Positions 7,603 through 31,800 of a DNA stretch of 32,000 bases are shown piece by piece. How positions within the stretch are numbered: position 1 is the first letter of the stretch; every line of letters begins with the position of its first letter. The stretch is from Pseudomonas aeruginosa (lineage in GTDB: Bacteria; Pseudomonadota; Gammaproteobacteria; Pseudomonadales; Pseudomonadaceae). The stretch covers positions 4,200,001-4,232,000 of the forward strand of contig NZ_LN831024.1 of NCBI RefSeq assembly GCF_001457615.1. The letters run 5' to 3'. Both the position numbers and the translations under genes were made by a program. The notes beneath the pieces are model-generated. The model did not search any database. It was given only the letters and a program-made list of their open reading frames with translations, and had not been told where the DNA came from.

Positions 7603-7628
7603 GTTCAGGCTCTCCGGTGACGAGGCAT

Positions 7629-8186
7629 TCAACCGCGCAGGCGGCGCACCCATAGCTGCAGGGCCTGCAACTGCTGCTGGATCAGCTCGCGCGCCTTGTC
7701 GTCGAGCAGCCGGCCCTGGGCGTCGAAGGCGTTCTGCGCGCTGGAGATCATCACTTCCGGCTTGTTCAGCGGATGAACGTCGAGGAACACCAGCGTCTGG
7801 CGCAAGTGATACTGCGCCCGCGCGGTGCCGAAACGCCCGGCACTGGCACCGAGGATCGCCGCCGGCTTGCCGGAGAACGGCTGCTCCGGCGGCCGCGAGG
7901 CCCAGTCGATGGCATTCTTCAGCACCCCGGCCATCGAATAGTTGTATTCCGGGGTGGCGAACAGCAGCGCGTCCGCCGCGCGGATCTGCTCGCGGAAGCG
8001 TTCCACCGCGGGCGGGAAGCCGAGGGCGTAGACGTCCTCGTTGTACAGCGGGATGCCGGAGATGTCCGCCAGCTCGATGCTCATGCCCGGCGGGACCAGG
8101 CCAATCGCCTCCTGCAGCGCCGCGCTGTTGTAGGAGCCGCTGCGCAGGCTGCCGGAAATGCCCAATACCTTGATGTCGTCGCTCAT
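7629..8186 (-). CDS. NAD(P)H-dependent FMN reductase (ChrR/YieF-like)
   Basis: 185 aa. KVLGISGSLRSGSYNS flavodoxin-like FMN-binding N-terminus. GAGGAG SD. Confidence 0.8.
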   Translation of the reverse strand: MSDDIKVLGISGSLRSGSYNSAALQEAIGLVPPGMSIELADISGIPLYNEDVYALGFPPAVERFREQIRAADALLFATPEYNYSMAGVLKNAIDWASRPPEQPFSGKPAAILGASAGRFGTARAQYHLRQTLVFLDVHPLNKPEVMISSAQNAFDAQGRLLDDKARELIQQQLQALQLWVRRLRG

Positions 8187-8213
8187 GCCGTGCTCCTCGT
8201 TGTGCGTGCGGGT

Positions 8214-8621
8214 TCAGTCGCGTAGCTGGCTGCTGACGCTGACCTCTCCGGAGAGTACACGATGGATCGGGCAGGCATTGGCGATCTCCAGCAGACGCTG
8301 GCGCTGCTCGGCGTCGAGATCGCCGGCCAGGCGGATGTCGCGGCGGATATGGGTGAAGGGCTCCGGCTTGGTGCGTTCCTCGACGATGTTCAGTTGCACG
8401 TCGATACCCTCCAGCGGCCACTCCTTGCGCTGCGCGTACATCGCCACAGTGATCGCCGTGCAGGCGCCCAGCGCCGAGAGCAGGATCTCGTGCGGCGAGG
8501 GACCACTGTCGCCGCCACCGAGGGCGGCCGGCACGTCGCTCAGCCACTGGTGGCTGTCGTCGCCGAGGGTCACGCGATAAGGGGTGGTGCCGAGGGAAGC
8601 GTTGACGACCTGGGTAGCCAT
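8214..8621 (-). CDS. OsmC/Ohr family peroxiredoxin-like protein
   Basis: Start at the ATG at 8621 (AGGAGA SD; MATQVVNASLG). PSPHEILLSALGACTAITV and ANACPIH, the two conserved Cys regions of the OsmC family. Confidence 0.8.
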   Translation of the reverse strand: MATQVVNASLGTTPYRVTLGDDSHQWLSDVPAALGGGDSGPSPHEILLSALGACTAITVAMYAQRKEWPLEGIDVQLNIVEERTKPEPFTHIRRDIRLAGDLDAEQRQRLLEIANACPIHRVLSGEVSVSSQLRD

Positions 8622-18853: not shown

Positions 18854-18863
18854 TACGCACAAA
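18854..18863. repeat. candidate attL core (TACGCACAAA)
   Basis: Identical 10-mer at 29727-29736. Extended match is 14/17 (ttttacgcacaaatcgg vs ttctacgcacaaagcga). Sits at the host/phage composition boundary. Confidence 0.5.
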
Positions 18864-18914
18864 TCGGCAAAGCCGAATCAGCGCTCATAACTAATTGATA
18901 TGCAAAGGAAAAAT

Positions 18915-19931
18915 CTAGGACGTCTCGGCAAGTGTCGAAGAACTGTCGAAATCCGCCAGCGGGTTGAGTCGAATAGCGTCCCGCAGGTATTCCGGCGACA
19001 AATGCGCATAGCGCATGGTCATGTTCAGCGACGAATGCCCAAGAATCTCTTTCAGCGCCAGGATGTTTCCACCGTTCATCATGAAGTGGGAAGCGAACGT
19101 ATGGCGTAGCACATGGGTGCACTGCCCTCTTGGCAGTACGATACCGCAACGCTTCACCATCCGTGCAAACGCCTCCCGACAAGAGGGAAAGCGATTCCGA
19201 CCGGCGAAATATTTCTCAAGTCGAGCCTGCAAGTCTGTCGAGATTGGTACGGATCGAACACGCTTTGATTTGGTATTGGAGAAGACCACCGATCCATCCC
19301 GGACCATGGGCAGAGTCAACCCTTGCGCTTCCGACCAGCGAGCCCCCGTCGCCAAGCAGACCTCTGAAATCAATGCCAAGTGGGGAAAGGTCGAATAGTC
19401 CCGGAGCGCTGACACCAACACCGCTACCTGATCCTTAGACAGGAACGATACAACCGACTGTTGAGGCTTCAACGGCTTGAGACGATCCAAAGGATTCGGA
19501 TAGTCGATATCGCCGAGCCTACGAAGCTCGGTGAATACTGTTTTCAGATACGAATAGCGAACGTTGATAGACCTAGGTAAAGCGCCCTCCTCCAACTCAC
19601 GCTTCCTGAACGCGACCAGATCAGCAGTGGTGAACCTCTGCCCCACCGGGTCGCCCAGGCGAGACGCGATCAGCAATAGCAGATTCTTACGACGCCTCCC
19701 GCTGGTAATCGAGTGCCCATGCAATTCATACCAACGCTCTATAAGTTCCGACAGCAGTCGCTTATCTTGCTGAACGGGGTTCCACTCCCGCTGTCGCGCA
19801 TGCTTTGTCCGCACCATCGCCTCAAACCGCTGGGCTTCGCCCTTGGTCTTGAAACGCTTCCTAAAACGCTTGCCTTTGATCGGTTCAACGTCGGCCAGCC
19901 AGCGGCCATCCTCAAGCTTGGTGATCGCCAT
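18915..19931 (-). CDS. tyrosine-type phage integrase
   Basis: 338 aa. ATGARWSE (Arg), HVLRHTFASHF (H-x-x-R), LGHSSLNMTMRYAHL (His/Tyr). Its start overlaps the rep stop (TGATG). Confidence 0.9.
   Translation of the reverse strand: MAITKLEDGRWLADVEPIKGKRFRKRFKTKGEAQRFEAMVRTKHARQREWNPVQQDKRLLSELIERWYELHGHSITSGRRRKNLLLLIASRLGDPVGQRFTTADLVAFRKRELEEGALPRSINVRYSYLKTVFTELRRLGDIDYPNPLDRLKPLKPQQSVVSFLSKDQVAVLVSALRDYSTFPHLALISEVCLATGARWSEAQGLTLPMVRDGSVVFSNTKSKRVRSVPISTDLQARLEKYFAGRNRFPSCREAFARMVKRCGIVLPRGQCTHVLRHTFASHFMMNGGNILALKEILGHSSLNMTMRYAHLSPEYLRDAIRLNPLADFDSSSTLAETS
18925..18953. repeat. left copy of 29-nt imperfect direct repeat containing tandem (G/C)TGTCGAA motifs (arm-type Int site or att candidate)
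   Basis: tcggcaagtgtcgaagaactgtcgaaatc vs 29584-29612 ttggcacgtgtcgaaaaagtgtcgaaatc, 25/29 identical. Internal TGTCGAA repeat at 11-nt spacing. Lies inside the int 3' end. Confidence 0.6.
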
Positions 19932-21223
19932 CAGATCGCGTATCCCCGCCGTAGATACCGATCACACATGAGCTTGTGGATATGCCTTTCCAGATCGCGA
20001 CGAGTCCAACCCTTGGCGAGATAGTGGTCTTCGATAACGTGCCAGAACTCCAGTTTGCGGGCGGACTCAATAGCCTTTTTTGCAGGGATGCGCTCCCGCG
20101 CAATCAGGCTGATGAACTGGCCGAGGAACATCTCGCAGTTACGCCCACTGAAGCCCTTGGCGGTCTTGTAATAGCGCCGGTACTCGGTGCGCTCGATCAG
20201 CGGATCGCACTCGACCTGGACGCGGGCGTCCTGGCTGATCAGGCTCCAGAACGGATCGTAGACCGCCGTCCGGCTCAGCAGCTTGAAGCTTTCACAGGCG
20301 TAGTTCCACAGTCCTTGCAGGTGCGGGCAAAGCCCCTCATAGGTGCGGCAGCCAATGACCTCCCCCGAGGCCATACGCGAGCCTTCGGAGAACTGCTGGA
20401 CGATGGAGTGATGGAAGCGGAATTCGAGCCGCCACACCGTTTCCAGGGGGTTATAGGCCGGGTCGCCATCGCCGAACGGATCCCCGTTCAGGGTGGCCCA
20501 CACGCTTTCCCAATAGTCGAGCTTGTCGGTGGCCCGAGCCTGGAGGGTCTTGTTATAGATCGACAGTTGCAGGCCGTTGGCCGAGCCGAACATGTACGTC
20601 TCGCCACGCCCGTAGACCGAGGCGTTGCCGTCGAATTCGATCCGCTCGATCCCGCTGATTTGCCGCACCCGACGCGAGCGGCAATGCATGCGATCCACCA
20701 GATCGCGAGGCGGTTTCCAGCCTTGTACGTCCAGGGCGATATGCACAGCGGCTTGGTTGGTCTCGCAGTGGCTCAGCACGGCAGCGGCCAAGTCATCCAG
20801 CACGCCCTGGAGGATATGCGGGTCGGCACCGTCGAGGGCATGGGGCGACACCTCGATCTTGAGGTGCGAGCCAAGGGTATCGACCTTGATGTTGTGATTC
20901 TTGATCAGCAGGATCAGCCCCAATTCTGCGTTCTGCAGACGGTACTGATAGCCGGAGTCGCGACCGATACGGCCCTTGGACCATTCGTAGCCGGCGAACT
21001 CGACCACATCCACCGAGAGGTCAAACAGCGCCATGACTTCCGGGCGCAACTTGCCGTTGTACAACTGCCGCACCGTATCCACGCCGCAACGCAGAATGCG
21101 CACGCCTGACAGATCAGTGAACGCCCCCGTCATGGAATCAACGAAGAGCCGTCCCTTGGGGGAATCCAGCAGTTGTCCGTCGGGTTGCAGCAGGAGGCGG
21201 TTTTGATGGGTCACTTTCTTCAT
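19931..21223 (-). CDS. filamentous-phage replication initiation protein (gII-like, Pf4 PA0727-like)
   Basis: ~430 aa from the ATG at 21223 (AGGTGA SD). The position between zot and int is as in Pf4/Pf5. No motif verified beyond synteny and size. Confidence 0.7.
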   Translation of the reverse strand: MKKVTHQNRLLLQPDGQLLDSPKGRLFVDSMTGAFTDLSGVRILRCGVDTVRQLYNGKLRPEVMALFDLSVDVVEFAGYEWSKGRIGRDSGYQYRLQNAELGLILLIKNHNIKVDTLGSHLKIEVSPHALDGADPHILQGVLDDLAAAVLSHCETNQAAVHIALDVQGWKPPRDLVDRMHCRSRRVRQISGIERIEFDGNASVYGRGETYMFGSANGLQLSIYNKTLQARATDKLDYWESVWATLNGDPFGDGDPAYNPLETVWRLEFRFHHSIVQQFSEGSRMASGEVIGCRTYEGLCPHLQGLWNYACESFKLLSRTAVYDPFWSLISQDARVQVECDPLIERTEYRRYYKTAKGFSGRNCEMFLGQFISLIARERIPAKKAIESARKLEFWHVIEDHYLAKGWTRRDLERHIHKLMCDRYLRRGYAI

Positions 21224-21236
21224 GGTTTCACCTAAC

Positions 21237-21254
21237 AATGTCCATTAATGTCCA
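21237..21254 (-). promoter_or_regulatory. tandem TGGACAT(T) repeats just upstream of rep start
   Basis: Plus strand aatgtcca x2 at 21237-21244 and 21247-21254 (10-nt period). The minus strand reads TTGGACATTAATGGACATT, related to the TTGGACTATG operator motif of the repressor/xis switch region. Confidence 0.45.
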
Positions 21255-21353
21255 AATCGCGGGGTGCTTATCTGACGTGTTACAGGGGCGTCGGCCGCGC
21301 CTTCGGCCTATCGCTCATGCCTTGCGCTCCCGGCCGGCGGCGCGGCCCGCCCC

Positions 21354-21455
21354 TCATGGCGGCACCCCTACCGCCGCTAGCGCCGTCATCACCGACCACC
21401 AGTGATGCAGCGCCCAGCCCATCGCCACCGGAACGAGGAATTCCCAATCGATCAT
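21354..21455 (-). CDS. small hydrophobic protein (33 aa) translationally coupled to zot
   Basis: The ATG overlaps the zot stop (AAATGATC). [45 protein letters not shown]. Below the ORF-track size cutoff as an independent start. Confidence 0.4.
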
Positions 21456-22726
21456 TTGTGCCTCCAGGGCCGCGAGGCATATTCGGAATCGGGGACGATG
21501 GTCAGCGGCGATTGGCCCCTGGCCGGTGCGTCTGCGGACGCGGCGACAGGCGCTGCCGGAACGACGCTGGCCACCGCGCCGGGCTGCCTCCCGGTACAGG
21601 TGACGGTCTGTTTCCACTCCTCATAGCGAAGCTCTACGACGCACTCGCCCTTGGGCGTTACCCGGTAGCCGGAGCCGATCAGTTGCCAACTGGTGAGTTC
21701 CAGGCGCCGGCCCGTGGGATCGTCCAGGGCGAACATGTAAATGTCGCCCCGCGACTTGCGGTAGGCGTGGGCAAGGATGGAGATCCGCCGATCGGCGAAG
21801 GGATGGGCGTTCAGATCAACAGGCGCAGCAGCAGGCCCATCAGGTACAAGCCCAGGAGGAAGAAAGCTATTCGCAGCAGGACGCGTTGGAGCAGCCACAG
21901 CAGCGGGCGCAGCAGGGGCTTGAGCAGGGTCGCCAGGAGCGTCGGCAGGTGTCGCAGCAGCCGGAGCGCCAATCGTGCGCAGAGGCCCCATATACCAGAC
22001 AAAGCCAATAGTGCCGGCCAGCAATGCCAGTAGAAGAACCAGCTTAGGCGACCGGAAGAGGCTCTTGCCCGCCTTGGTGTCTTGGGTCTTGCCGGTGGCC
22101 GTGGACTGGTAGAGGGCGAAGGTCTGCTTTCGGATTCGCTTGTATTCGATGATGGTGCCATCGGCGGGCGGACGGTTGAGTTGGGCGTCATGCTGGGCCT
22201 CCTTGTAGCGGCCAGGGATGCCGATCACCGCGAGGTTGGAATGCTTGTAGGCCATCTCGCAGGTCATGCGGATGTCGTCGCGGATGTAGGAGATGTTCGG
22301 CGTGGTGAGGACGATGTCCCAGTTGAAATGCCGGTGCCGGGTCCAGGCGTCGAGCCAGCCCATGGGACGGTCGGCGGCGTGGGCCGCTTCCGGTCCACCG
22401 GGGTAGTCGAAACGCTCGAGGTCTTTTTCCCGCCAGGACTTGGGAAACAGCAGTTGGGTTTCGTCGAAGATCAGGAAGGCCCCGCGGGGCGCCCACTGAA
22501 ACCACGTGCGCATCTTTTCGAGGTCTTCCAGCGACTCCAGATCGAGGTTGATGATCTCCGCCGTGTTGGGCAGGTCCGGAAAGACCTGATAGGCCCGCTC
22601 CAGGGTGAAGCCGCGCACGTTGGTGATGATCACCCGTCCGTCTTTCAGCGCGGGCACGGCGTCATCCTGGATCGCGCCGGAGGTCTTGTAGGAGCCATTG
22701 GGGCCGTGATGGATCTTGATCGACAC
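21452..22726 (-). CDS. Zot-like assembly ATPase (gI homolog)
   Basis: 424 aa, GTG start with GGAGG SD. Walker [11 protein letters not shown]. Central TM segment followed by a Pro/Ala-rich region. Zonular occludens toxin family architecture. Confidence 0.9.
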
Positions 22727-22729
22727 GGA

Positions 22730-23086
22730 TCACCTCCCAATGAACGGCACGAAGCGCATGCAGAAGCGCGTCGCCGCCGCGACCATGATGATGTTCAACG
22801 CCTGCGGCACGCCGAAGAAGGCCAGCCCCGCCGCAATCGGCCCCGGCAGCGCGGCATACATGCTGCGGATCATCTGCGGCACGCCGAGGCTGTCGATCAG
22901 TTCGCGGGCGGCGGTGTAGCTGACATCGATCAGCAGGATCAGGGTCTGGAGCGCGGCGTACATCGACGCCTTGGTGGCGACCACCAGTCCGTCGCGCACG
23001 AAGTCATAGATGCCTTGGGCGAAGAAATCCCAGATCCACTGGAAGAAGGCGATGATCTGATCGAGAAAACCGGAGAGCCATTCCAT
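22730..23086 (-). CDS. minor coat/assembly membrane protein (g6-like, Pf4 PA0725-like)
   Basis: 118 aa, multi-TM, between coaA and zot as in Pf phages. Confidence 0.65.
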   Translation of the reverse strand: MEWLSGFLDQIIAFFQWIWDFFAQGIYDFVRDGLVVATKASMYAALQTLILLIDVSYTAARELIDSLGVPQMIRSMYAALPGPIAAGLAFFGVPQALNIIMVAAATRFCMRFVPFIGR

Positions 23087-23090
23087 AGGG

Positions 23091-24377
23091 TCAGTCCTTC
23101 AGCAGAATGAGGGCGGCGATCAGCGCGGCCATCAGCAGCAGCGCCACGCGCAGGCTGGAGAGTTGGCCGGCGTAGTCGGAGATACAGAGGGAGTAGGACT
23201 TGCCCCAAATGGTCATGGACTCGCAGGGCAGCTGCCCGCCGCCTTCCGCCAGGTTGAGGTCGAAGGCGCCCTTCATCTGATCGACGTTGGCCTTCACCTT
23301 GGTCTTGAGTTCTTGCTTGGCTTCCTCGACCTTCTTTTCCCAGGTGGCGATGGCGTCATCCCAGGTGCCGGGCGTGGGCTCCTTGAGTTCGCCGCCGGGG
23401 CCTTCGGGGCCGGTGGAGCAGTTCTCTTTCGCCGGGTCGCATGTACCGTTGCCATCGCCGCCCGTGCCGCTGCCGTCACCGTCGCCGCTACCCTCGCCCC
23501 CGCCGTTGCCGTCCCCTCCCCCGCTGCCGTCGCCGCCATTGCCGGTGCCACCGTCATTGCCGCCGCCGTTGTTGTTTCCACCGCCATTGCCATCGCCGCC
23601 ACCGTCGCCATCACCCCCCGGCGTGGTCGGGTCGGTTGGATCCGTGGGATCGGTCGGGGTCTTGACGCAGGTAGTCCCCGACCACGACCAGCCGGGCGGG
23701 CAGCCGGGGTCGTTCGGGTCGGAAGGATCGGTGTTCGGGGTGTCGGGTGGGTTCAGCGAATCGCCGGTCTGCGCGAAGGTGTAGGAATCGGCACCGCAAT
23801 TCTGTCCGGTGCCCTTGAGGATGTAATTGCAGAAGCCGGTCGTGGTGGAGCCTTTGACCAGATAGCAACTGGCCGGGCTGGGGTTGCCGCCGTACTCGCA
23901 GCTTTGATAACAGGCGCTCGGTGCGCCGCCGTCGCCGACATAGTTCCGCCCGCCCGAGGTGACAACAGGCGAGTCCGGGCCCTTGGCCGGGAACAGTTCG
24001 CCTTCCTTGCATTCTTCGGGCGGCGGTTTGCAGGCGCCATCGGCCGGATCGAGTTCTTGCTCTGAAGGACAGCTATCGCCAGTCAAAACAGCATCAGTCG
24101 AATAACTGTTAACACCTATATGGACAATGCATTGCACCCACCTGTCGTTAACCCTATTCATGGTCTTTCTGTACTCAGGAGACCAAGTATCAAAGTAGGA
24201 CTGACAAGCTGCTGCATAGGATGGAAAGAAGGCCGTAGGCCGCCCACCTATATCAATTTTCCATCGATAGATTTCAGCGCTCGCCAAGGGATGCCACAGC
24301 AGAGAGACCAGCAGACCCAGCAGCGAAAGAAGTCGGCCAAGGCCGGAACGTGCGTTGTTACTCATCCAGTCACCCAT
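23091..24377 (-). CDS. coaA: minor coat adsorption protein CoaA (g3-like)
   Basis: 428 aa. Signal peptide, Cys-rich N-terminal domains, PTDPTDPTDP plus long Gly/Asp/Asn linker, C-terminal membrane anchor LLLMAALIAALILL. Confidence 0.85.
   Translation of the reverse strand: MGDWMSNNARSGLGRLLSLLGLLVSLLWHPLASAEIYRWKIDIGGRPTAFFPSYAAACQSYFDTWSPEYRKTMNRVNDRWVQCIVHIGVNSYSTDAVLTGDSCPSEQELDPADGACKPPPEECKEGELFPAKGPDSPVVTSGGRNYVGDGGAPSACYQSCEYGGNPSPASCYLVKGSTTTGFCNYILKGTGQNCGADSYTFAQTGDSLNPPDTPNTDPSDPNDPGCPPGWSWSGTTCVKTPTDPTDPTDPTTPGGDGDGGGDGNGGGNNNGGGNDGGTGNGGDGSGGGDGNGGGEGSGDGDGSGTGGDGNGTCDPAKENCSTGPEGPGGELKEPTPGTWDDAIATWEKKVEEAKQELKTKVKANVDQMKGAFDLNLAEGGGQLPCESMTIWGKSYSLCISDYAGQLSSLRVALLLMAALIAALILLKD
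23445..23657 (-). repeat. low-complexity PTD / GGDGNGGG-encoding linker repeats within coaA
   Basis: aa 241-311 of CoaA: PTDPTDPTDPTTPGGDGDGGGDGNGGGNNNGGGNDGGTGNGGDGSGGGDGNGGGEGSGDGDGSGTGGDGNG. Confidence 0.8.
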
Positions 24378-24411
24378 GAAAAAGCCCCCTGCCGGAAACT
24401 CCGGAGGGGGC
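24378..24411 (-). terminator. rho-independent terminator between coaB and coaA
   Basis: Minus strand GCCCCCT-CCGG-aguuu-CCGG-c-AGGGGGC followed by UUUUU. The T-tract ends at the coaA ATG (24377). Confidence 0.65.
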
Positions 24412-24512
24412 TTCCGCCTCGGTCTGTTCGGTTAGAAGAATTCGCCGGTCCGGTACCCGGTGATGAAGGCGCCGGCGAAGAACGCCCCCAACCACACCGA
24501 CCAGAGCACCCG

Positions 24513-24761
24513 TTACGCCTTGCGCAACATGCTGTAGATCAGGCCGGCGACGGCCAGGATCACCAGGGCGCCGACGATGTAGCCGCCAATGGCCTTCATA
24601 TCGCCCTGCCCATCGGTGATCGCCGATTCCACCGCGCTGGTGTCGATCACTGCGGCGAAGGCCGGCAGCGAAGTCGCGGCAGTGACGGAACCGGCGATGC
24701 ACAGGTTGCGGAACGAGGCGACCGGGCTGAACTTGGCGATGCGTTGCTTCATTGCTTTCAT
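24513..24761 (-). CDS. coaB: major coat protein CoaB (g8-like)
   Basis: 82-aa precursor. The mature part VIDTSAVESAITDGQGDMKAIGGYIVGALVILAVAGLIYSMLRKA matches the Pf1 major coat protein sequence as I remember it. Confidence 0.95.
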   Translation of the reverse strand: MKAMKQRIAKFSPVASFRNLCIAGSVTAATSLPAFAAVIDTSAVESAITDGQGDMKAIGGYIVGALVILAVAGLIYSMLRKA

Positions 24762-24773
24762 GGTGTTTCCTCT

Positions 24774-25025
24774 CTACTTGGCTTTACGAAGAAGTGACGC
24801 GACCCAGCCAATCAAAAGCCCCGTCACGAACGATCCCAGGACGCCAGCGGCACCGATGCCGAAGGCTTCCGGGGAGAAACCACCGTTGACCAGGATGTCC
24901 ACGTATCCAGCGGCCTCGGGCGGCATCAGGTAGGCCTGCTGCCATGCGAGTTCGCGACACGCCATAAAGCCCTCGGGGGTCGAGGTCCACGCGGTACACA
25001 CCTGCACAGCGACAACGCCTGACAT
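24774..25025 (-). CDS. small Pf membrane protein (PA0722-like position)
   Basis: 83 aa, C-terminal TM GVLGSFVTGLLIGWVASLL, directly upstream of coaB. Confidence 0.6.
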   Translation of the reverse strand: MSGVVAVQVCTAWTSTPEGFMACRELAWQQAYLMPPEAAGYVDILVNGGFSPEAFGIGAAGVLGSFVTGLLIGWVASLLRKAK

Positions 25026-25037
25026 AGCGATCAGTCC

Positions 25038-25130
25038 TCAAACAGGCAGGGAGGCCGCTAGGCCGTCGATCCAGCCCCAGGCGTAGCCGGTGGCCAGACC
25101 TACCGCGAACAGCGAGAGATAGCGGAGCAT
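25038..25130 (-). CDS. pfsE: PfsE-like superinfection-exclusion peptide (30 aa)
   Basis: Not in the ORF track (<60 aa). AGGAGG SD, ATG at 25130. [30 protein letters not shown]. Lies between the ssDNA-binding gene and the PA0722-like ORF, as PA0721 does in Pf4. Confidence 0.75.
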
Positions 25131-25146
25131 CGCGGCCTCCTAGGGC

Positions 25147-25581
25147 TTACGCCTTGGCGTCCGGGGACTTGTCTTGTTTGTCCTGGCCCTGCGGCTGCTG
25201 GGCCGGGCGCGGGGCTTGGGACTGTGCTTGCGGGCGGGCCGGGGCTTGGGCGGTCGGCGCCATCGGCTTGCCGCCCACGGCCAGCAGATCCACAAGGACC
25301 TGGGTATTGGTGATCCGACCGAAACGGTCTTGGGTCGGGCGGACCACGCTGGCGAACTTGCAGAGCACCGGCTGGCCTTCGAAGACGATGGCGTCCAGCA
25401 GGGTCGGCTCGATGTTGTATTCACTGATCTCGAAGCCCTTGGCGTTGCCACGGGCACCTTCCGGGATCGGGGCGATGGACTGGACCGAGGCGTAGATTTC
25501 CCCGGTCTTGGTCGAGGTATAGGTGTCGGTCTTGGTGACCCACAGTTCGACGACGCCGCCTTGGGTTGCAAACATGTTCAT
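25147..25581 (-). CDS. ssDNA-binding protein (g5-like)
   Basis: 144 aa from the ATG at 25581 (GAAGGAGAAACACCG SD). MNMFATQGGVVELWVTKTDTYTSTKTGEIYA resembles the Pf1 gene 5 protein. Pro/Gln/Ala-rich tail. Confidence 0.85.
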   Translation of the reverse strand: MNMFATQGGVVELWVTKTDTYTSTKTGEIYASVQSIAPIPEGARGNAKGFEISEYNIEPTLLDAIVFEGQPVLCKFASVVRPTQDRFGRITNTQVLVDLLAVGGKPMAPTAQAPARPQAQSQAPRPAQQPQGQDKQDKSPDAKA

Positions 25582-25715
25582 CGGTGTTTCTCCTTCATTT
25601 CGCCTTTTTCGGCGTGAGTTGTCCCGCTGCTGCAAATTCGGCTGTTTCGCCTTCATTCAGCGGTGTTGGGTGAAAGTGATTTGTGGGGCGACCCCTTCGG
25701 GCCGGGCTCTATTCG

Positions 25716-26093
25716 CTAGCGAACCAAGCCAACCACGGGTGTTCGTCTCAGCCCATTCGGGTAACGATCCCTATCGCAACGTCGTCTCCGACGGCCAAGG
25801 GGAACGCTTCCCCTTGGAACCCGCAGAGCAACACCAAGGGCTCTGCCCTTGTCATCCCGCTCTTGCCGCCGAGGGCTCGGGAGCGCGGGGCGGAGGAGCT
25901 GCCCCACACTCCCCAGCGGAGGCTGTTTCAGGGGGGAGGCGTTCAAGGGTGCGCTGCGCCCGTGCTTCCGTTCGCCGGAACGGTAAAGCTGTTCCGACGA
26001 GCCGGGAGCGCGGCCCTTGACCGGATCGGCCACGGTGCGGGCGGCCTGGATCAGGCAGAACAGGAGCAGCGCTTTCAGGGTGTCAGCGAGCAT
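25716..26093 (-). CDS. hypothetical Pf protein (PA0719-like position); 3' two-thirds doubtful
   Basis: GGAGG SD and an ATG 4 nt after the upstream stop. Hydrophobic N-terminus [18 protein letters not shown]. The rest is Arg/Pro/Gly-rich and overlaps a dense hairpin cluster. Confidence 0.35.
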
Positions 26094-26607
26094 GGGTCAG
26101 CCCTCCAGTTGGAATGCTTCGCGCACGGGCACAAAGGGCGTGGGTTTCCCGCTGTCGTACACAACGTGCCAGTACTTCGGCGGACGCCGGGACGGGTCGT
26201 GTTTCGCGCAGAAGGAACGGGGACGGCAGAGCCAGCGGCCATCTTCCCGATAGGGCAGCCCAGGGGGCCGGCAGTCCGGACACGGCGACGGGCTGTGCAA
26301 TGGGATGACCTGCCTTGCGGACCAGCACACAGAGCAGGCGCAGTCCGGGGCGTGGGTTTGGCGCAAGTAATTCGGAGACGACATGGTCAGCTTCCTCCTT
26401 ATCTTGGCGAGCACGACCCCAGGCGAGAGCCTCAACCCGCAGGTCGGTCAGATAGGATTCTTCCGGCTGGGAGAGGTAGCCGGCGTCCATGAGGCCATCG
26501 ATCAGCATCAGGGCGCGGTCGAAGGGTTCGCTAGGGTGCTGTGCCGTTTGCAGCAGATAGCCTTCCAAGAAGGTCAGCAGCGCATGGATAGGGTTGCCTG
26601 ACAGCAT
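26083..26607 (-). CDS. hypothetical Pf protein coupled to xis (TGATG overlap); C-terminal extent uncertain
   Basis: The first ~80 aa have protein-like composition ([56 protein letters not shown]). The remainder looks like off-frame sequence and overlaps ORF 26097..26384. Confidence 0.4.
26097..26384 (-). CDS. Cys-rich hypothetical Pf protein (95 aa)
   Basis: AAGGAGGAAGCTGACC SD before the ATG at 26384. [21 protein letters not shown]...CPDC...WLCRPRSFC. Diverse composition (K, Y, W, H, D) unlike the overlapping frame. Confidence 0.55.
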   Translation of the reverse strand: MSSPNYLRQTHAPDCACSVCWSARQVIPLHSPSPCPDCRPPGLPYREDGRWLCRPRSFCAKHDPSRRPPKYWHVVYDSGKPTPFVPVREAFQLEG

Positions 26608-26822
26608 CAGAACTCCTCCTTTTCCATCAGCTGATGGGTGAAGAGCGCAACATTGACCATCACGTGCTTGCCGATCTTGTGCGCGGGGAGATAGCCCTTA
26701 CGAATCCATCCACGGACGGTTTCGTGGTCTTCCCCCATGCCAATCCAGTTCGCGAAGTCCCGCCACGGCAACACCGGGGGCGCCGCGCGAAGGTCTTGAG
26801 CCTTGATTTCTTCCACTTCCAT
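26607..26822 (-). CDS. excisionase-family (AlpA/MerR-type HTH) regulator, XisF-like
   Basis: 71 aa. FANWIGMGEDHETVRGWIRKGYLPAHKIGKHVMVNV fits the excisionase HTH_17 pattern. First gene of the phage operon, divergent from the repressor. Confidence 0.65.
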   Translation of the reverse strand: MEVEEIKAQDLRAAPPVLPWRDFANWIGMGEDHETVRGWIRKGYLPAHKIGKHVMVNVALFTHQLMEKEEF

Positions 26823-26832
26823 GGCCTTTGCT

Positions 26833-26928
26833 GCACTATGTTGGTCTATAGAGGACTATGGTCTTGGACTATGTCCATTGACTATGTGCAAACAATAGCT
26901 CTTGGACTATGTCATGTACATAGTCCAA
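26833..26928. promoter_or_regulatory. lysis/lysogeny-type switch region with five ACTATG operator repeats
   Basis: cactatgt 26834-26841. ggactatg 26853-26860. ttggactatgt 26864-26874. ttgactatgt 26878-26887. Perfect palindrome ttggactatgt-catgt-acatagtccaa 26902-26928. Lies between the divergent xis and repressor genes. Confidence 0.7.
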
Positions 26929-26949
26929 ATAATGATTAATACCTATTAA

Positions 26950-27216
26950 ATGAGCATTACAGATAGAGCTTTGCTATTGATTGGCCGTAGTAACCTAAGC
27001 GCCCTGACCAGAGCAGGCGCGACGGACTACAACCGATGGGTAAGCATCAAGCGAGGGAAGGCCAGAGTGGGCGCGGACGAGATTGAAATCCTCGGCAGTG
27101 TCTACCCTGCATATCGATGGTGGCTTACCACAGGCGAAGTCATGCCGGAGATTGGGCAAACAAGCCCTGACTACGACGAAGCCAACCGAAACTTGACCAG
27201 TCAAAGCGCGGGATAG
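26950..27216 (+). CDS. Pf immunity repressor (repressor C / Pf4r-Pf5r-like position)
   Basis: 88 aa, divergent from xis across the operator region. Assignment is by synteny. Sequence family not verified. Confidence 0.55.
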   Translation: MSITDRALLLIGRSNLSALTRAGATDYNRWVSIKRGKARVGADEIEILGSVYPAYRWWLTTGEVMPEIGQTSPDYDEANRNLTSQSAG

Positions 27217-27310
27217 CGATCACACAGGAAGTGGCTAGGCGTTGGTATGCCCGAGAAAGGCGGGATTGTTGAAGGATTGGCGTGAAGCCAACTATCAGGA
27301 AAGGGAACCC

Positions 27311-27724
27311 ATGCAGGTTGATACAGATGAAATTCGTGCCCCTTGGGCACCCCGCGTTCACGCAATTGGGCGCTTCGAATGGCTAGCCATAATCACTATT
27401 GGCGTGACCCTCGGTGGCTTACTAAAGGATGGGATAGAACTCGCAATCGCCAAAGCTGTAGCGGAGCGATATCTCTATGAGGCTGGCCAGGAGATGAAAC
27501 GCTCTAGCGAACGAATGCGACAAGATGCCGAAGCCATCAGACAACGCACAGCCCAACATAGAAACGAGTCTGAAAAAAAACGTCTTCAAGAACAAGCCGA
27601 AAATGAACGTCTGAATAGACTAAATAGCCCCGCGTGCAAGTTCTGGACAGAGCAGAATAATCGAAGTCCAACCCAGAAAACTAGAGATGGAGTCAGCCGA
27701 AGCTGTCCACAGTCTGAAATTTAA
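27311..27724 (+). CDS. membrane-anchored coiled-coil protein (137 aa), lysogeny-side cargo
   Basis: ATG at 27311 with a GGAAAGGGAA SD. One TM (FEWLAIITIGVTLGGLL), then a charged helical region (EMKRSSERMRQDAEAIRQRTAQHRNESEKKRLQEQAENERLNRL). Two C-terminal Cys. AT-richer than the Pf core. Confidence 0.55.
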   Translation: MQVDTDEIRAPWAPRVHAIGRFEWLAIITIGVTLGGLLKDGIELAIAKAVAERYLYEAGQEMKRSSERMRQDAEAIRQRTAQHRNESEKKRLQEQAENERLNRLNSPACKFWTEQNNRSPTQKTRDGVSRSCPQSEI

Positions 27725-27778
27725 ACTTATATAAGCCAGGCTTTTAAACTAATCTTTATCAAGCTACATAGAAGACTC

Positions 27779-28768
27779 TTAATCTCTAGCTTCCTTCTGC
27801 GCAAATGCAGCCCACTTACTAAAACGATTGCCATCAATAGTAGCAGCCTCAGCTATTGTTCCTGCAAGTTTTCTTTTAAGCTCATTTTTTGTGTAGCCGT
27901 AGTCAGGACTCTTTCCATCGAGAGCATCAGAAATTCGCCGAGCCGCCATGAGTCGAGCAAACGGGACGACAAGCTCACCGTTTAGTTTAACTACCCCGGT
28001 AATATGCGCAGGAGCGCCAAATCTAAAAACCTTTGTTTTTTCTATCGCCAGTTTGTAGCCATACCTGCTTACAATTATCTTTAGCTTAGACTTAAGCTCG
28101 CGAGGTATTCGGTCACCAGAGAAAGTTAAATCATCTATATAGCAGGTGAATTTTAGATCATATGTTTCTGCAAGCGCCGCGCACTCATCAAACATACCCT
28201 TGGCAACCCAAAAGGATAACAACGGGCTAAGCAAACTGCCTGTAGGCATAACTCCATCGCAGGTAACTAGGCGTGCTAATTTTCCTGCAATATCTGTTGG
28301 GCATTTCAATGCCCCTAAAAAAAACTCGTGAACCAAATGATATTTAGTGGACTCATAAAACTTACTTATATCGAAGGTTGCTGTCTGCCTTGATCTGGCA
28401 TGAAACGCAGCATTTGTTTGATAAGATCGCCCTTTTACTGCGCCTTGCACATAGTCCGGATATTTTACACGACGAAGAAAAGAAAAGATCTTAGCATGGA
28501 CCCGCCGAAGCCTATTCATAGGCACTTGGACTGCGCGCTTTTTCCGGGGCTTTTTAGTGAATGGGTTCTCAGACTGGGAAATTGTGAATTTCTTATAGTT
28601 ACTTTCGGACCTTAATAGCAGTCGTAGGTCTTGCAAGCTAAGACCTAAGATTTCCGCCAGGCGTTTTTCCGATCCGATCTTGTAAAGCCTGCACTGATCT
28701 AATTCTAAACTGTTATCTGGCTTGCGCTCTACTCTTTTGCTTTTCCCTGGCTGCATTTCGCTTTTCAT
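27779..28768 (-). CDS. retron-type reverse transcriptase (stand-alone, ~325-336 aa)
   Basis: GRSYQTNAAFH (retron NAxxH), FDISKFYES (motif A), MPTGSLLSPLLS (motif B), CYIDDLTFS (YxDD), KTKVFRFGAPAHITGVV (retron VTG-like). Co-linear with Ec86 RT motifs. Start ambiguous: ATG 28768, ATG 28756 or TTG 28789. Confidence 0.8.
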   Translation of the reverse strand: MKSEMQPGKSKRVERKPDNSLELDQCRLYKIGSEKRLAEILGLSLQDLRLLLRSESNYKKFTISQSENPFTKKPRKKRAVQVPMNRLRRVHAKIFSFLRRVKYPDYVQGAVKGRSYQTNAAFHARSRQTATFDISKFYESTKYHLVHEFFLGALKCPTDIAGKLARLVTCDGVMPTGSLLSPLLSFWVAKGMFDECAALAETYDLKFTCYIDDLTFSGDRIPRELKSKLKIIVSRYGYKLAIEKTKVFRFGAPAHITGVVKLNGELVVPFARLMAARRISDALDGKSPDYGYTKNELKRKLAGTIAEAATIDGNRFSKWAAFAQKEARD

Positions 28769-29039
28769 TCCATTCAAGCAAAGAAACAATAGTTTTAGCT
28801 ATTCCAAGGCGCAACGAGTCTGTTGGTCGAGGGGAGTTAAGATTTTCAGAGAAAAAAAGAATTGAAGATAAAGGGATGTCGAAGTAATCGCTATATTTCT
28901 GCAGCAGATCTATTGAGGGCTGCTTCTTACCTGATTCAATCTCAGACAAATATGAGTTTGAAAGGCCTAACTCAGCCGACAACTCGGTCTGGGACATATC
29001 GTAATAGGAACGGATTAATTTAAGTGCTTTGCACAGCAT
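28713..29039 (-). CDS. XRE-family helix-turn-helix protein (108 aa)
   Basis: ATG at 29039 with a GAGGT SD. MSQTELSAELGLSNSYLSEIESGKKQPS is a classic Cro/C1 HTH. The 3' end overlaps the RT start by 44-77 nt in another frame. Confidence 0.8.
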   Translation of the reverse strand: MLCKALKLIRSYYDMSQTELSAELGLSNSYLSEIESGKKQPSIDLLQKYSDYFDIPLSSILFFSENLNSPRPTDSLRLGIAKTIVSLLEWNEKRNAAREKQKSRAQAR

Positions 29040-29077
29040 TTGCACACCTCATATGGATGTGGCAACAGCGGGGTAGG

Positions 29078-29245
29078 TTATTCATCAAGCCATGAAGCAA
29101 TCTTACTCCAAAACTTATCAATCAGTGGAAGCCATATCACAAGCAGCTTAACCAAGCTGAAACAAGCATTGAGTAGCTTAGATCGCTTCTTTGCCTTCTG
29201 TTTAACCAGGCACAGTTCTGCGGTTTTTTCGTCATTAGGTTGCAT
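29078..29245 (-). CDS. unannotated 55-aa basic/hydrophobic protein, first gene of RT operon (candidate membrane effector)
   Basis: AGGAG SD 7 nt before the ATG at 29245. MQPNDEKTAELCLVKQKAKKRSKLLNACFSLVKLLVIWLPLIDKFWSKIASWLDE, stop TAA at 29078. Below the 60-aa cutoff. Same strand and composition as HTH/RT. Confidence 0.5.
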   Translation of the reverse strand: MQPNDEKTAELCLVKQKAKKRSKLLNACFSLVKLLVIWLPLIDKFWSKIASWLDE

Positions 29246-29325
29246 TTAAAAGCTCCTGTAAGGGTTTGCGTTGGCTCACGGGTGTGAGCCAACCTCTCGA
29301 AGCAACCTTTACAAGCCCAATGACG
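29230..29325 (-). promoter_or_regulatory. structured 5' element enclosing SD and start codon of the 55-aa ORF
   Basis: Bipartite 14-bp helix: 29319-29325 pairs with 29230-29236, and 29302-29308 pairs with 29237-29243. It encloses a perfect 10-bp hairpin (29270-29293). Codons 2-5 of the ORF are in the helix. Confidence 0.45.
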
Positions 29326-29500
29326 GATGATTGAACTGTACTTTTCCCCCTCGCTGAAACCACCTGGCTTCGTGCTCTCGACGAAGCCTGACTAGGCCGA
29401 TCCGATGACACACGCGATACCACGCGCCACGTCGGGGCCAAAAATTAGAGACTCAAGGCCTCCACGGTGTCGAAGCACCAACAGCAATCGAGAAATCATC
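29326..29500 (-). ncRNA. candidate retron msr/msd non-coding RNA (boundaries tentative)
   Basis: 175-nt non-coding stretch between the predicted promoter and the operon. Closed by the 7-bp inverted repeat GATGATT (29494-29500 on the RNA 5' side) / AATCATC (29326-29332). Contains an 8-bp hairpin at 29366-29388. Length and a1/a2-like closure fit retron ncRNAs. Confidence 0.3.
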
Positions 29501-29512
29501 GACCGCAGACTC

Positions 29513-29541
29513 ATAGTCTCAGGATGCTTCACGAAAGTCAA
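29513..29541 (-). promoter_or_regulatory. candidate sigma-70 promoter of the RT operon
   Basis: Minus strand TTGACT (29541-29536), 17 nt, GACTAT (29518-29513). The predicted TSS near 29506 is just 5' of the GATGATT repeat. Confidence 0.35.
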
Positions 29542-29571
29542 AATAATTTTCGCTGATAGCGAAATTATTTT
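29540..29571. promoter_or_regulatory. AT-rich inverted repeat abutting the -35 (candidate HTH operator or Int/Xis/IHF arm site)
   Basis: aaaataattttcgct-gat-agcgaaattatttt: 7+7 bp arms with a single-nt bulge. Confidence 0.4.
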
Positions 29572-29583
29572 TCATGGGAGATG

Positions 29584-29612
29584 TTGGCACGTGTCGAAAA
29601 AGTGTCGAAATC
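29584..29612. repeat. right copy of 29-nt imperfect direct repeat with tandem GTGTCGAA motifs
   Basis: 25/29 identical to 18925-18953. A further GTGTCGAAG copy lies at 29467-29475. Confidence 0.6.
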
Positions 29613-29726
29613 ACTGGCTAACAATGGCCAGTAATGACCACATGATGAATCCCAACACAAGCCCCCCACCCAGCATTGCCTAGCGTTGGCCAGTTATGAC
29701 CAACACCCCAAACGGCTCTGCACTTC

Positions 29727-29736
29727 TACGCACAAA
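29727..29736. repeat. candidate attR core (TACGCACAAA)
   Basis: Identical to 18854-18863. GC-rich host-like sequence resumes immediately to the right. Confidence 0.5.
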
Positions 29737-29784
29737 GCGACGCCGACCCCAGCCCCTCCCGACGCCCGATGCTAGTCTTGCCTC

Positions 29785-30378
29785 ATGACTCCCGACCTCG
29801 ACCACCGCCTCGACCTCGCCGGGCAGATCCTCTGCCTGCTGCGCGAGCATCCCGAGGGGCTTTCCGAATACCAGTTGATCCAGCTGCTGAAGGCCCGCCA
29901 TTCGACGCATATCCCCCATCGCGAACTGGCCGACAAGCTGGTGCTGTTCCGCACCCATTTCCTCCTGTTCAACGCGCTCTACCACCTGCGCGACCACCTC
30001 TGGGCCGAGCACGAGGCGCACCTGGAGATCAGCCCGCTGAGCCTGCGCCTGCATCCTTACGTGGATGGCACGCAGGCGCTGGAACAGGGCGATCCGCTGC
30101 GCGACTACTACCTCGACCTGCGTCACCTGGGGGAGACCAGCGAGGCCGACGTCGAGCGGCTGCTGCAGAGTTTCTGGACGCGCATGCAGGGCAGCGAGGA
30201 GAAGGCTGCCGCCCTCGCCCTGTTCGAGCTGGAGGGCGCGGTCGACTATCCCGCCATCAAGCTGCGCTACCGGCAACTGGTCAGCCAGCACCATCCCGAC
30301 CGCGGCGGCAGCACTGCGCGCCTGCAATCGATCAACAAGGCAATGGAAATACTGCAACGCTATTACAGCCGGCCGTGA
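29785..30378 (+). CDS. J-domain (DnaJ-like) protein
   Basis: 197 aa. C-terminal J domain YPAIKLRYRQLVSQHHPDRGGSTARLQSINKAMEIL with the HPD motif. Confidence 0.8.
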   Translation: MTPDLDHRLDLAGQILCLLREHPEGLSEYQLIQLLKARHSTHIPHRELADKLVLFRTHFLLFNALYHLRDHLWAEHEAHLEISPLSLRLHPYVDGTQALEQGDPLRDYYLDLRHLGETSEADVERLLQSFWTRMQGSEEKAAALALFELEGAVDYPAIKLRYRQLVSQHHPDRGGSTARLQSINKAMEILQRYYSRP

Positions 30379-30550
30379 AGCTTCGATTTGCTCTAAACCC
30401 GCGAGCGACGCGGGCTCGGGCCGTTCCTATACTGCGACATAAGGTCGCATAGGTCGGCCGAGCACCGGGTGGCGCTGTCCATGCGCGCCCGGCGCTTCGC
30501 TGGGGGGCGACCACATAAGAACGAGGAGGAAACGGCATGATCCATCATGT

Positions 30551-31135
30551 ATGGGGCTCTTCACCCATCCCGATCAGGAATGGCAGGAAATCCGTGGCGA
30601 AGAAGAAAGCATCAGCCACATGTACCTGACCCACATCCTGATCCTGGCTGCCATTCCGGCGATTTCCGCCTATATCGGCACGACCCAGGTCGGCTGGGTG
30701 GTCGGCGGCGGCGATCCGGTCAAGTTGACCCAGGCCAGCGCGTTGCAGATGACGGTCCTCACCTACCTGGCGATGCTCGCCGGGGTGGCGGTGATGGGCG
30801 CGTTCATCCACTGGATGGCGCGGACCTACGACGCCAACCCGAGCCTGACCCAGTGCATCGTGTTCGCCGCCTACAACGCCACGCCGCTGTTCATCGCCGG
30901 GCTGGCGGCGCTGTATCCGCACCTCTGGCTGGGAATGATCGTCGGGGTGGCGGCGATCAGCTACACGGTCTACCTGCTCTACGTGGGGATTCCCACCTTC
31001 ATGAACATCCACAAGGACGAAGGCTTCCTGTTCTCCAGCTCGGTGCTGGCGGTGGGCCTGGTGGTGCTGGTGGCGATGATCGCCCTGTCGGTGATCCTCT
31101 GGGGCAGCGGGGTCGGCCCGGAATACACCAGCTGA
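30551..31135 (+). CDS. Yip1/DUF1282-family inner-membrane protein
   Basis: 194 aa, 5 TM segments. FTHPDQEWQEIRGEEESISHMYLTHILILAAIPAISAYIG is typical of the family. Start uncertain: a strong GAGGAGGAAA SD sits before the out-of-frame ATG at 30537. Confidence 0.65.
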   Translation: MGLFTHPDQEWQEIRGEEESISHMYLTHILILAAIPAISAYIGTTQVGWVVGGGDPVKLTQASALQMTVLTYLAMLAGVAVMGAFIHWMARTYDANPSLTQCIVFAAYNATPLFIAGLAALYPHLWLGMIVGVAAISYTVYLLYVGIPTFMNIHKDEGFLFSSSVLAVGLVVLVAMIALSVILWGSGVGPEYTS

Positions 31136-31302
31136 CGTCCAGCGAACGCATCGTACGACCGGGCCGCGGGCAACCGCCGCCCGGTTTTTTCTTGCCCGCC
31201 GCCGCGCTTGCCTGATCCTGCACCCCGGACGAGCGGTCGTCCCGACGCCTGCGCCCGCCCTCCTGTCTCCGGCATAATCGCCCGCTGCTGGAGTCTTCCC
31301 GA

Positions 31303-31800
31303 ATGCCCGAACACCTCAACGCCCGCGTCGAGGCCTGCTATCGGCAGGCCGAACACTTCTTCCAACGCAGCTTCCCCCGCCCGACCGTCAGCTTCCGCCT
31401 GCGCGGCCAGAAAGCCGGGGTCGCCCATCTCGACGAGAACCTGCTGCGCTTCAATCCCCAGCTGTACCGCGAGAACCGCGAGCACTTCCTGGAACAGACC
31501 GTGGCCCACGAAGTCGCGCACCTGATCGCGCACCAGTTGTTCGGCCCACGCATCCGCCCCCACGGCGAGGAGTGGCAGTTGATCATGCGCGGCATCTACG
31601 GCCTGCCGCCGGACCGCTGCCACACCTACGCGGTCAAGCGCCGCGTCACCACCCGCTACCTGTACCGCTGCCATTGCCCGGAGCACAACGACTTCCCGTT
31701 CTCCCCGCAACGCCACACCCTGGTGGCCAAGGGGCGCCGCTACTACTGCCGGCGCTGCAAGGCGACCCTGGTGTTCACCGGCGAAGTGCTCCGCGAGTGA
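31303..31800 (+). CDS. sprT: SprT-family zinc metalloprotease
   Basis: 165 aa. HEVAH (HExxH) plus C-terminal Zn-ribbon CHC...CRRC. Confidence 0.85.
   Translation: MPEHLNARVEACYRQAEHFFQRSFPRPTVSFRLRGQKAGVAHLDENLLRFNPQLYRENREHFLEQTVAHEVAHLIAHQLFGPRIRPHGEEWQLIMRGIYGLPPDRCHTYAVKRRVTTRYLYRCHCPEHNDFPFSPQRHTLVAKGRRYYCRRCKATLVFTGEVLRE

Follow-up and report, generated by a model that had tools for sequence, protein, structure and literature searches.

Published Type VI retrons and the locus under study

Type VI retrons were defined by Mestre et al. (2020) as reverse transcriptases (RTs) of clade 3 accompanied by a Cro/C1-type helix-turn-helix (HTH) protein of 91 to 110 amino acids (aa), and small auxiliary proteins were already listed in that survey (PMC7736814). 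No canonical msr-msd was recognised for the type in 2020 (10.64898/2026.04.27.721009). Here we analyse a cassette of this kind in Pseudomonas aeruginosa. It lies on the minus strand, at 27779-29564, of a stretch of 32,000 nucleotides (nt) analysed as a whole (contig NZ_LN831024.1, positions 4,200,001 to 4,232,000; hereafter, the window). It comprises an RT gene, an overlapping HTH gene, a 55-aa open reading frame (ORF) for a small protein (SP) and a structured leader of ~262 nt, behind a conserved candidate operator and predicted promoter. An initial annotation, made from the letters of the window, had proposed a retron operon, tentatively of Type VI, carried as cargo by a filamentous Pf prophage.

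Two members of the family have been characterised, and both defend against lytic and temperate tailed phages. In Retron-Vpa2, from Vibrio parahaemolyticus, a hybrid RNA of ~470 nt holds the msr-msd as well as the sequence that encodes a 55-aa SP, which is the toxic effector (Zhang et al., 10.1101/2025.10.22.683967). RT, HTH and RNA are found in a complex, with HTH acting as a repressor of reverse transcription. An 86-nt multicopy single-stranded DNA (msDNA) accumulates in response to phage recombination proteins and to RecBCD inhibition, and translation of SP requires it. In the authors' proposal, the DNA copy of a 7-nt repeat in an msd loop anneals to its twin in a riboregulator loop (10.1101/2025.10.22.683967). 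Retron-Sen3 works differently: both cDNA and SP are made constitutively, the antitoxin is HTH, and the system is triggered by RecBCD inhibition (Garcia-Rodriguez et al., 10.64898/2026.04.27.721009). The same work splits Type VI into SP-defined subclades, of which cl3897 is found mainly in Pseudomonas. As to the carrier, Pf4 of strain PAO1 has a retron at its 5′, repressor-proximal end (PMC9980816), typed Retron I-B by PADLOC (PMC11878078), and among 12 new clinical Pf phages two have a retron.

The locus in the window has all the sequence-level features by which an SP-HTH-RT system of Type VI is defined, and we are practically certain of its identity as a Type VI retron. It is a complete one, with all three proteins and a predicted hybrid RNA; a Pf5-type prophage carries it as a moron, at the end proximal to the repressor, and it probably works in the manner of Vpa2. 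The initial annotation knew of no established mechanism for this retron class and regarded the small third component as undescribed. Neither statement holds, given the publications on Vpa2 and Sen3 and the auxiliary proteins of the 2020 survey. With these mechanisms in print, the cassette belongs to a type already catalogued with a defined effector mechanism, an outcome which that annotation had itself listed as counting against its proposal.

The reverse transcriptase and its HTH partner

Read from its first TTG, the RT ORF spans 27779-28789 (336 aa). The likely start is the ATG at 28768, which gives a protein of 329 aa (27779-28768, minus strand) without a fused effector domain, as initially proposed, and 100% identical to the P. 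aeruginosa NCBI protein cluster P0001. Classification with profile hidden Markov models (HMMs), suggested in the initial annotation as a check, gave a clear answer. The PADLOC model RT_VI was matched over its full length (positions 1-275 of 279, E 2e-75, 251.6 bits), far above the other retron types, the next being RT_III-A with 128 bits, and Pfam RVT_1 was matched at E 8.5e-13. By profile match, the RT is thus a member of the Type VI clade. The retron motifs YIDD, NAxxH and xTG are found as CYIDDLTF, NAAFH and HITGV, and residues Y210, D212, D213, N119, H123, T257 and G258 are invariant in 27 homologues. Concerning other RT classes (those of group II introns, of diversity-generating retroelements and of UG/Abi), the best 25 of the 39 PADLOC matches were all to retron RT models, and the NCBIfam group II intron maturase model scored 16.9 bits for a cut-off of 300.

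The HTH gene overlaps the RT gene by 56 nt. Its ORF covers 28713-29045 and encodes 110 aa from a GTG; the start conserved across loci is the ATG at 29039, preceded by a ribosome-binding site (RBS), GAGGUG, at 29045-29050. This yields the Cro/C1-type protein of 108 aa that had been predicted (28713-29039, minus strand). It matches PADLOC HTH_VI at full length (model 1-91 of 92, E 2.5e-36) and Pfam HTH_3 (E 3.7e-14), so that both the RT and its partner point to the same type, as had been suggested initially. HTH is the most conserved protein of the cassette, being 54-69% identical in loci whose RTs are just 40-49% identical. As foreseen, no classical retron effector is adjacent. A reading of HTH as RstR, the CTXphi repressor, was set aside: the NCBIfam score was 36 bits for a cut-off of 80, and probably reflects generic HTH_3 similarity.

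The 55-aa ORF

The third gene, SP, encodes 55 aa at 29078-29245 (minus strand) and is the candidate toxic effector, given its synteny, its ratio of nonsynonymous to synonymous polymorphism (pN/pS), its hydropathy and the experimentally shown toxicity of homologous SPs in Vpa2 and Sen3. The ORF stops 38 nt before the HTH start. It has no family match in Pfam, NCBIfam, PADLOC or PHROGs, and a profile search of 1.84 billion protein representatives returned 12 matches at E <= 1e-3; the SP family is small and fast-evolving.

For comparison, we used 42 loci with RT relatives from species-representative genomes and 13 loci with closer relatives (56-69% RT identity). A syntenic, ATG-initiated ORF of 44-65 aa, on the same strand and tens of bases before HTH, was found in ~38 loci, that is, in nearly every locus bearing an HTH gene. 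tblastn with the SP of the window finds it in loci with an RT identity of ~43%, and its position, frame and length persist down to ~30% RT identity. In the 11 closest loci, pN/pS amounts to 0.44, and the ORFs differ in length by whole codons in the codon alignment. The proteins share a layout, with a short acidic/basic N-terminus containing K-x-A-E, a basic patch, a hydrophobic stretch and a LIDKxW motif; in the SP of the window the N-terminal half is basic, and RBS and AUG are conserved across loci. Judged by these comparisons, the 55-aa ORF is a real gene, and the third component proposed initially stands.

The ORF had been described as previously uncalled. It is indeed uncalled in four NCBI assemblies with an identical RT, but a 53-55-aa gene is called at this place in several relatives and in a Yersinia phage, so that the description is fair for this genome and not for the family. 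The peptide had also been described as membrane-type, which is unproven. Residues 24-42 have a 19-residue Kyte-Doolittle mean of 2.13, the C-terminus is amphipathic (hydrophobic moment ~0.6), and published work on SPs leaves the toxic mechanism open. An AlphaFold2 model of SP is all helix (predicted local distance difference test 78.7, predicted TM-score 0.34), built from a 3-sequence alignment that is too shallow to choose between a single helix and a helical hairpin.

Operator and promoter

A perfect inverted repeat, TTTCGCT-ATC-AGCGAAA, lies at 29548-29564 (minus strand), just upstream of the predicted -35 box, and is the sole exact TTCGC-N5-GCGAA site in the window. Of 29 related loci, 28 share the arrangement TCGC-N(2-6)-GCGA with TTGAC after it, and so does Yersinia phage vB_YenM_56.17, whose RT is 34% identical. 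When the 11 closest loci are aligned, conservation begins abruptly at the inverted repeat and is followed by an A/T-rich tract, TTGACT and a hexamer. The predicted sigma-70-type promoter (29513-29541, minus strand) is made of a -35 box TTGACT at 29541-29536, a 17-nt spacer and a -10 box GACTAT at 29518-29513; the TTGAC box and a nAnnAT hexamer are kept at fixed spacing in the same 11 loci. From this position, transcription is predicted to start near 29507, giving a leader of ~262 nt (29246-29507). The inverted repeat is a candidate operator for HTH, judged by its sequence and conservation, which suggests that HTH also autoregulates transcription.

The hybrid RNA

The initial annotation had proposed a structured non-coding leader of ~260 nt. 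The length and the structure were right, but the conserved structure does not stop at the leader and runs through the SP coding sequence. We therefore describe a predicted hybrid RNA (hyRNA) of ~465 nt (29043-29507, minus strand; both ends predicted), composed of the structured leader, the SP coding sequence and a 3′ inverted repeat, and reaching into the HTH start. The 465-469 nt down to the HTH start fold with a minimum free energy (MFE) of -180.6 kcal/mol (z -5.6), and none of 100 shuffled sequences was as stable.

On an alignment of 27 loci, RNAalifold found 28 consensus pairs, 21 of them compensatory. A curated structure was then obtained by projecting the MFE fold of the window on the alignment, keeping the supported helices and swapping one for an RNAalifold stem. 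It contains 72 pairs in 9 helices. Of its cells, 86.3% are paired, compared to 38-46% when the structure is slid by 1-3 columns; 55 of the 72 pairs have changed on both sides (22-36 when slid), and the covariation score is 0.401 (0.08-0.13 when slid). None of 500 shuffles reached these values, which are nevertheless inflated, part of the structure coming from the MFE fold of the window itself and the helices having been chosen after the per-helix counts were seen. The RNAalifold result and the per-pair counts are independent of this selection. Helices within the body of the SP ORF, and the helix 61-65/605-609, were dropped, being 43-62% paired, near the slid controls.

The structure begins with a 5′ stem (29484-29506), followed by two stem-loops, SL-A (29466-29479) and SL-B (29446-29464), which together occupy 29446-29479 on the minus strand. 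Both are 96.3% paired over the 27 loci, with changes on both sides in 5 of 5 pairs for SL-A and 4 of 7 for SL-B. Next comes a hairpin of variable sequence (29395-29439, minus strand). Although its sequence is unalignable, 26 of the 27 loci form one hairpin here, 29-63 nt long (45 nt in the window), and its base helix is conserved, 77% paired with 3 of 4 pairs compensatory. A covarying base under a single hairpin of non-conserved sequence is the pattern expected of an msd stem-loop, and we regard this hairpin as the candidate msd. It is followed by a hairpin formed by GGCUUCG and CGAAGCC (29363-29389, minus strand; helix 83.8% paired), which presents in its loop the first of two 7-nt repeats, UCGAGAG (repeat 1, 29375-29381). 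Repeat 1 would, from its position, lie in the msd.

Two helices tie the leader to the SP gene. In the long-range inverted repeat, a G-rich 5′ arm, GUGGUUUCAGCGAGGGGG (29346-29363, minus strand), pairs with a 3′ arm, CCUACCCCGCUGUUGCCAC (29059-29077, minus strand), placed directly after the SP stop codon. This helix has 13 pairs, is 85.8% paired with an invariant GGG/CCC core and 7 compensatory pairs, and its 3′ arm is kept in non-coding sequence across loci with RT identities of 41-69%. In the second, the leader segment GUACAGUUC (29333-29341, minus strand) pairs with GAACUGUGC (29210-29218), which corresponds to SP codons 10-12. This leader-SP helix is 96.7% paired, and 8 of its 9 pairs have changed on both sides.

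Between their 5′ arms and the SP start lies a riboregulator-like domain (29253-29324, minus strand), made of nested helices around repeat 2 (UCGAGAG, 29294-29300, in an internal loop) and ending at the SP RBS, GGAG (29253-29256). Its helices are 75-91% paired, with compensatory changes in 8 of 9, 11 of 13 and 5 of 5 pairs, and one of its arms pairs with the first codons past the SP AUG. Repeats 1 and 2 are both unpaired in the predicted fold and lie ~80 nt apart, a spacing of ~70-83 nt being kept across loci. Their first base is concordant in 25 of 27 loci, being T/T in the close set and G/G in the majority of the distant loci.

The cassette of vB_YenM_56.17 (OM046627), a P2-like phage, is instructive in this respect. 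Its genes, a 54-aa ORF, an HTH of 105 aa and a retron RT, are arranged as in the window, and it has an operator TTCGCT-N4-AGCGAA followed by TTGAC, and a pair of 7-nt direct repeats. It differs by its tailed carrier, its RT identity of 34.4%, and its repeats, both of which read UGGCGAC instead of UCGAGAG. That both have changed together indicates most clearly that what counts is a match between the repeats, and not to a fixed motif. A still more distant RT match, at 30.7% identity, is in the Shewanella Mu-like phage MuM16-1, also a tailed carrier, whose paper mentions a Type VI retron (PMC8541194).

An Rfam scan of 26500-30500 at E <= 10 found no retron msr, the only match being a chance one to gntR-DTE outside the cassette; this is consistent with no canonical msr-msd having been recognised for Type VI in 2020. 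We also observed that SL-B, with AUUUUUGG after it, is flagged as resembling a terminator. Not all close relatives share the U-run, some having ACCCUUGG, which makes a conserved attenuator unlikely; premature termination at this particular locus is possible.

The cassette is cargo of a Pf5-type prophage

The initial annotation had placed the operon in AT-richer DNA at the repressor-proximal variable end of a Pf prophage, and this proved accurate. The prophage spans 18854-29736 and is bounded by 10-bp att direct repeats, TACGCACAAA, at 18854-18863 and 29727-29736. Its core (integrase, replication, coat, Zot and regulatory genes) is 93-98% identical to the Pf5-type record AY324828 (10,675 bp), and Zot, CoaB and integrase are annotated in loci identical to this prophage; core genes, integrase and att repeats of a Pf prophage are thus all present. 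By blastn, homology to AY324828 ends at 27327 and resumes at 29588, so that the cassette is cargo within the prophage. The variable region so delimited (27328-29587) measures 2.26 kb and stands in place of the ParA-like Orf317 region of AY324828. GC content is 0.42-0.46 over 27500-29500, and ~0.65 in both flanks. Just inward of the cargo region are a Pf repressor homologue (26950-27216, phrog_147) and an excisionase-like gene (26607-26822).

Four P. aeruginosa assemblies contain an identical RT in the same prophage at the same chromosomal site. Other Pf-like prophages, a survey of which had also been suggested initially, have versions with 66-68% RT identity at this same end; repressor identity is then 45-48% and excisionase identity 61-62%. 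Equally close versions adjoin unrelated integrases and resolvases, and tailed phages (P2-like, Mu-like and others) harbour more distant ones. This makes the cassette a mobile module without specificity for Pf. When 27500-29750 was compared by blastn ('distant' setting) with 50,697 phage records, the sole match was to the att end of AY324828, which means that this cassette is in no deposited phage genome; likewise, no Pseudomonas phage record matched the window RT at E <= 1e-10.

Proposed mechanism and alternatives

Based on these observations and on the Vpa2 work, we propose the following sequence of events. A promoter guarded by the inverted-repeat operator, the presumed HTH site, would drive a single transcript, the first ~465 nt of which would fold as the hybrid RNA. 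This would provide both a template for reverse transcription (the variable and repeat-1 hairpins) and the SP coding sequence. The SP ORF would be shut by the long-range inverted repeat and by the helix between the leader and codons 10-12, while the riboregulator domain would occlude the RBS region. RT, HTH and RNA would form a complex in which HTH keeps reverse transcription down. Upon infection, phage recombination proteins or RecBCD inhibitors would cause msDNA to accumulate. SP translation would then be released, and the small hydrophobic protein would arrest the cell by abortive infection, thereby protecting the lysogen population and hence the Pf prophage. The complex, the triggers, the msDNA-dependent derepression and the toxicity of SP are all carried over by analogy with Vpa2.

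The likeness to Vpa2 lies in the SP-HTH-RT order, in a 55-aa SP with a hydrophobic C-terminal part, and in a hybrid RNA of ~465-470 nt. In both, the RBS and start region is held in helices, the 3′ end pairs back to the 5′ domain like a1/a2, and two 7-nt repeats lie in loops. The carrier differs, being here an inovirus prophage of P. aeruginosa. The size of SP, the length of the hyRNA, the occluded start and the covarying, unpaired twin repeats favour msDNA-dependent derepression of SP, and on this analogy we lean, by a little, towards a Vpa2-like over a Sen3-like way of working.

Several points weigh against this proposal. The resemblance to Vpa2 is architectural, established by description and not by placement at the sequence level, and the locus is known from its sequence only. 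Sen3 shows that members of the family can work differently. For six Type VI retrons, one of them from a Pseudomonas sp., no msDNA was detectable in E. coli (cited in 10.64898/2026.04.27.721009). A protein-binding motif common to both repeats, and not annealing of msDNA to RNA, could also account for their identity. A consensus promoter scanner called no promoter at the locus, so that the call made above is one of cross-locus conservation alone. The inflation of the curated RNA statistics, already mentioned, belongs here as well.

The strongest competitor, which we nevertheless consider rather unlikely, is that this Type VI retron works like Sen3. SP would be made constitutively and neutralised by direct binding of HTH, cDNA would be constitutive and uncoupled from activation, and RecBCD inhibition would free the toxin. 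A family member has been published with this mode, and the high conservation of HTH relative to RT is what one would expect of a protein-protein partner. Sen3 and its subclade cl2075 further resemble the present locus by their Type VI RT clade, a cl2_1 HTH overlapping RT, an SP upstream, a non-coding RNA within ~280 nt of the SP start and an inverted repeat with its 3′ arm just past the SP stop codon. They differ by their SPs, of 75-79 aa with an N-terminal extension of ~25 residues, and by a SL3 of ~166 nt, where we find a 55-aa SP and a 45-nt hairpin; constitutive cDNA and post-translational control, as seen in Sen3, are a further difference from the scheme proposed here. Moreover, the covarying pair of 7-nt repeats is precisely the feature used by the Vpa2 model. 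As the SPs of cl2075, cl2760 and cl3272 are all of 75-79 aa (PMC7736814), the length of SP argues against these three subclades. The clade of the window may correspond to cl3897, the lineage associated with Pseudomonas, and not to the 'Large' one to which Vpa2 belongs. A profile search with the 27 RTs returned 112 relatives, none of them labelled Vibrio or Salmonella.

That the cassette mainly serves the prophage appears improbable. HTH and SP would act as a toxin-antitoxin addiction pair, or the cassette would control superinfection by other Pf phages, whose single-stranded DNA (ssDNA) replication and ssDNA-binding proteins could act on the msDNA pathway. The position next to the Pf repressor and excisionase genes invites this idea, as does the recurrence, in other Pf-like prophages, of diverged versions (66-68% RT identity) at this end; the HTH-SP pair of Sen3 acts as a stand-alone toxin-antitoxin module, and Pf4 likewise has a retron and a toxin-antitoxin pair at its ends. 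Yet relatives just as close reside in unrelated islands, and others in tailed phages, which does not tie the cassette to Pf biology, and the defence provided by the two characterised members is directed at tailed phages, lytic and temperate.

Finally, the reading in which the 55-aa ORF arose by chance in a purely non-coding retron RNA, leaving HTH and RT as the only two proteins, is rejected: the silence of four HMM libraries, the mere 12 cluster representatives among 1.84 billion proteins, the missing gene calls in four assemblies and the RNA-structure constraint on the region all speak for it, but length, position and frame are kept in ~38 loci down to ~30% RT identity together with LIDKxW, RBS and AUG, the coding sequence is constrained (pN/pS 0.44, whole-codon length differences), helices inside the ORF body are only 43-62% paired, close to the slid controls, and the homologous SPs of Vpa2 and Sen3 are experimentally toxic.

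Significance

The locus reveals no new kind of system. The SP toxin, HTH, RT and hybrid RNA have been characterised in Vpa2 and Sen3, and retrons at this end of Pf were known from Pf4, so that a claim of novelty fails. Compared to Pf4, the cargo is likewise a retron at the same prophage end, but of Type VI with SP and HTH and not of Type I-B. No earlier Type VI retron appears to have been documented in the prophage of an inovirus.

What the locus offers is a well-delimited natural Type VI retron of P. aeruginosa, with base-level positions for its genes and repeats, its hyRNA helices, and its operator and promoter. Comparison across loci independently supports two features of the Vpa2 model: the long-range helix between leader and SP covaries strongly, and the 7-nt repeats change together across lineages. 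The locus also shows that filamentous Pf prophages exchange different types of retron at the same cargo slot, which bears on how clinical P. aeruginosa strains are armed by chronic phages against phage therapy.

The lifestyle of the carrier may matter, because Pf replicates via ssDNA with an abundant ssDNA-binding protein, and the switch of Type VI retrons depends on how stable a small ssDNA is and on phage ssDNA-annealing proteins. It is a long shot, but an inovirus Type VI retron might be tuned to ignore its own Pf, or to sense Pf induction or superinfection, and might represent an uncharacterised Pseudomonas lineage (cl3897?) with a trigger logic of its own.

Neighbouring genes and other observations

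Between the Pf repressor and the RT stop, and convergent with RT, an ORF of ~137 aa with a predicted hydrophobic segment lies on the plus strand (27311-27724). It begins where Pf5 homology ends and is thus part of the cargo region. It matches PHROG 18252, of unknown function (E 9e-75). tblastn found it in 0 of 50,697 phage records; it is present, and uncalled, with the identical prophage in the four assemblies mentioned above.

The surroundings of the cassette vary among relatives. In a P. aeruginosa strain with a 66-68% identical retron at the same chromosomal site (locus L044), two further cargo genes, for 261 aa and 425 aa (4346-5131 and 7041-8318), flank the retron and have no domain matches. 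Two Pf-like prophages (L046 and L047) have a Trypsin_2 protease gene directly 3′ of RT (5003-5884 in L046). Five relatives with 56-65% RT identity (L048, L049, L050, L052 and L054) lie between a DUF6538-type tyrosine integrase and a serine resolvase, meaning that the same cassette travels between Pf prophages and integrative islands of another kind. L051 and L053 have the resolvase only, with DprA-like genes close by, and their contigs stop upstream. In vB_YenM_56.17, the cassette (L057, 1100-1990) sits between the tail genes gpS and gpV.

Within the core genes of the window prophage, homology to AY324828 is broken only once, at 23611-24378, in the region of the coat protein A (CoaA) gene; this may be a host-range variable segment. 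There is no tRNA gene in the window. On the chromosomal side of attR, at 29785-31800, are DnaJ-related, Yip1-family and SprT-like genes, and the same flank is found in L044 and in L059-L062, which points to a recurrent Pf integration site.

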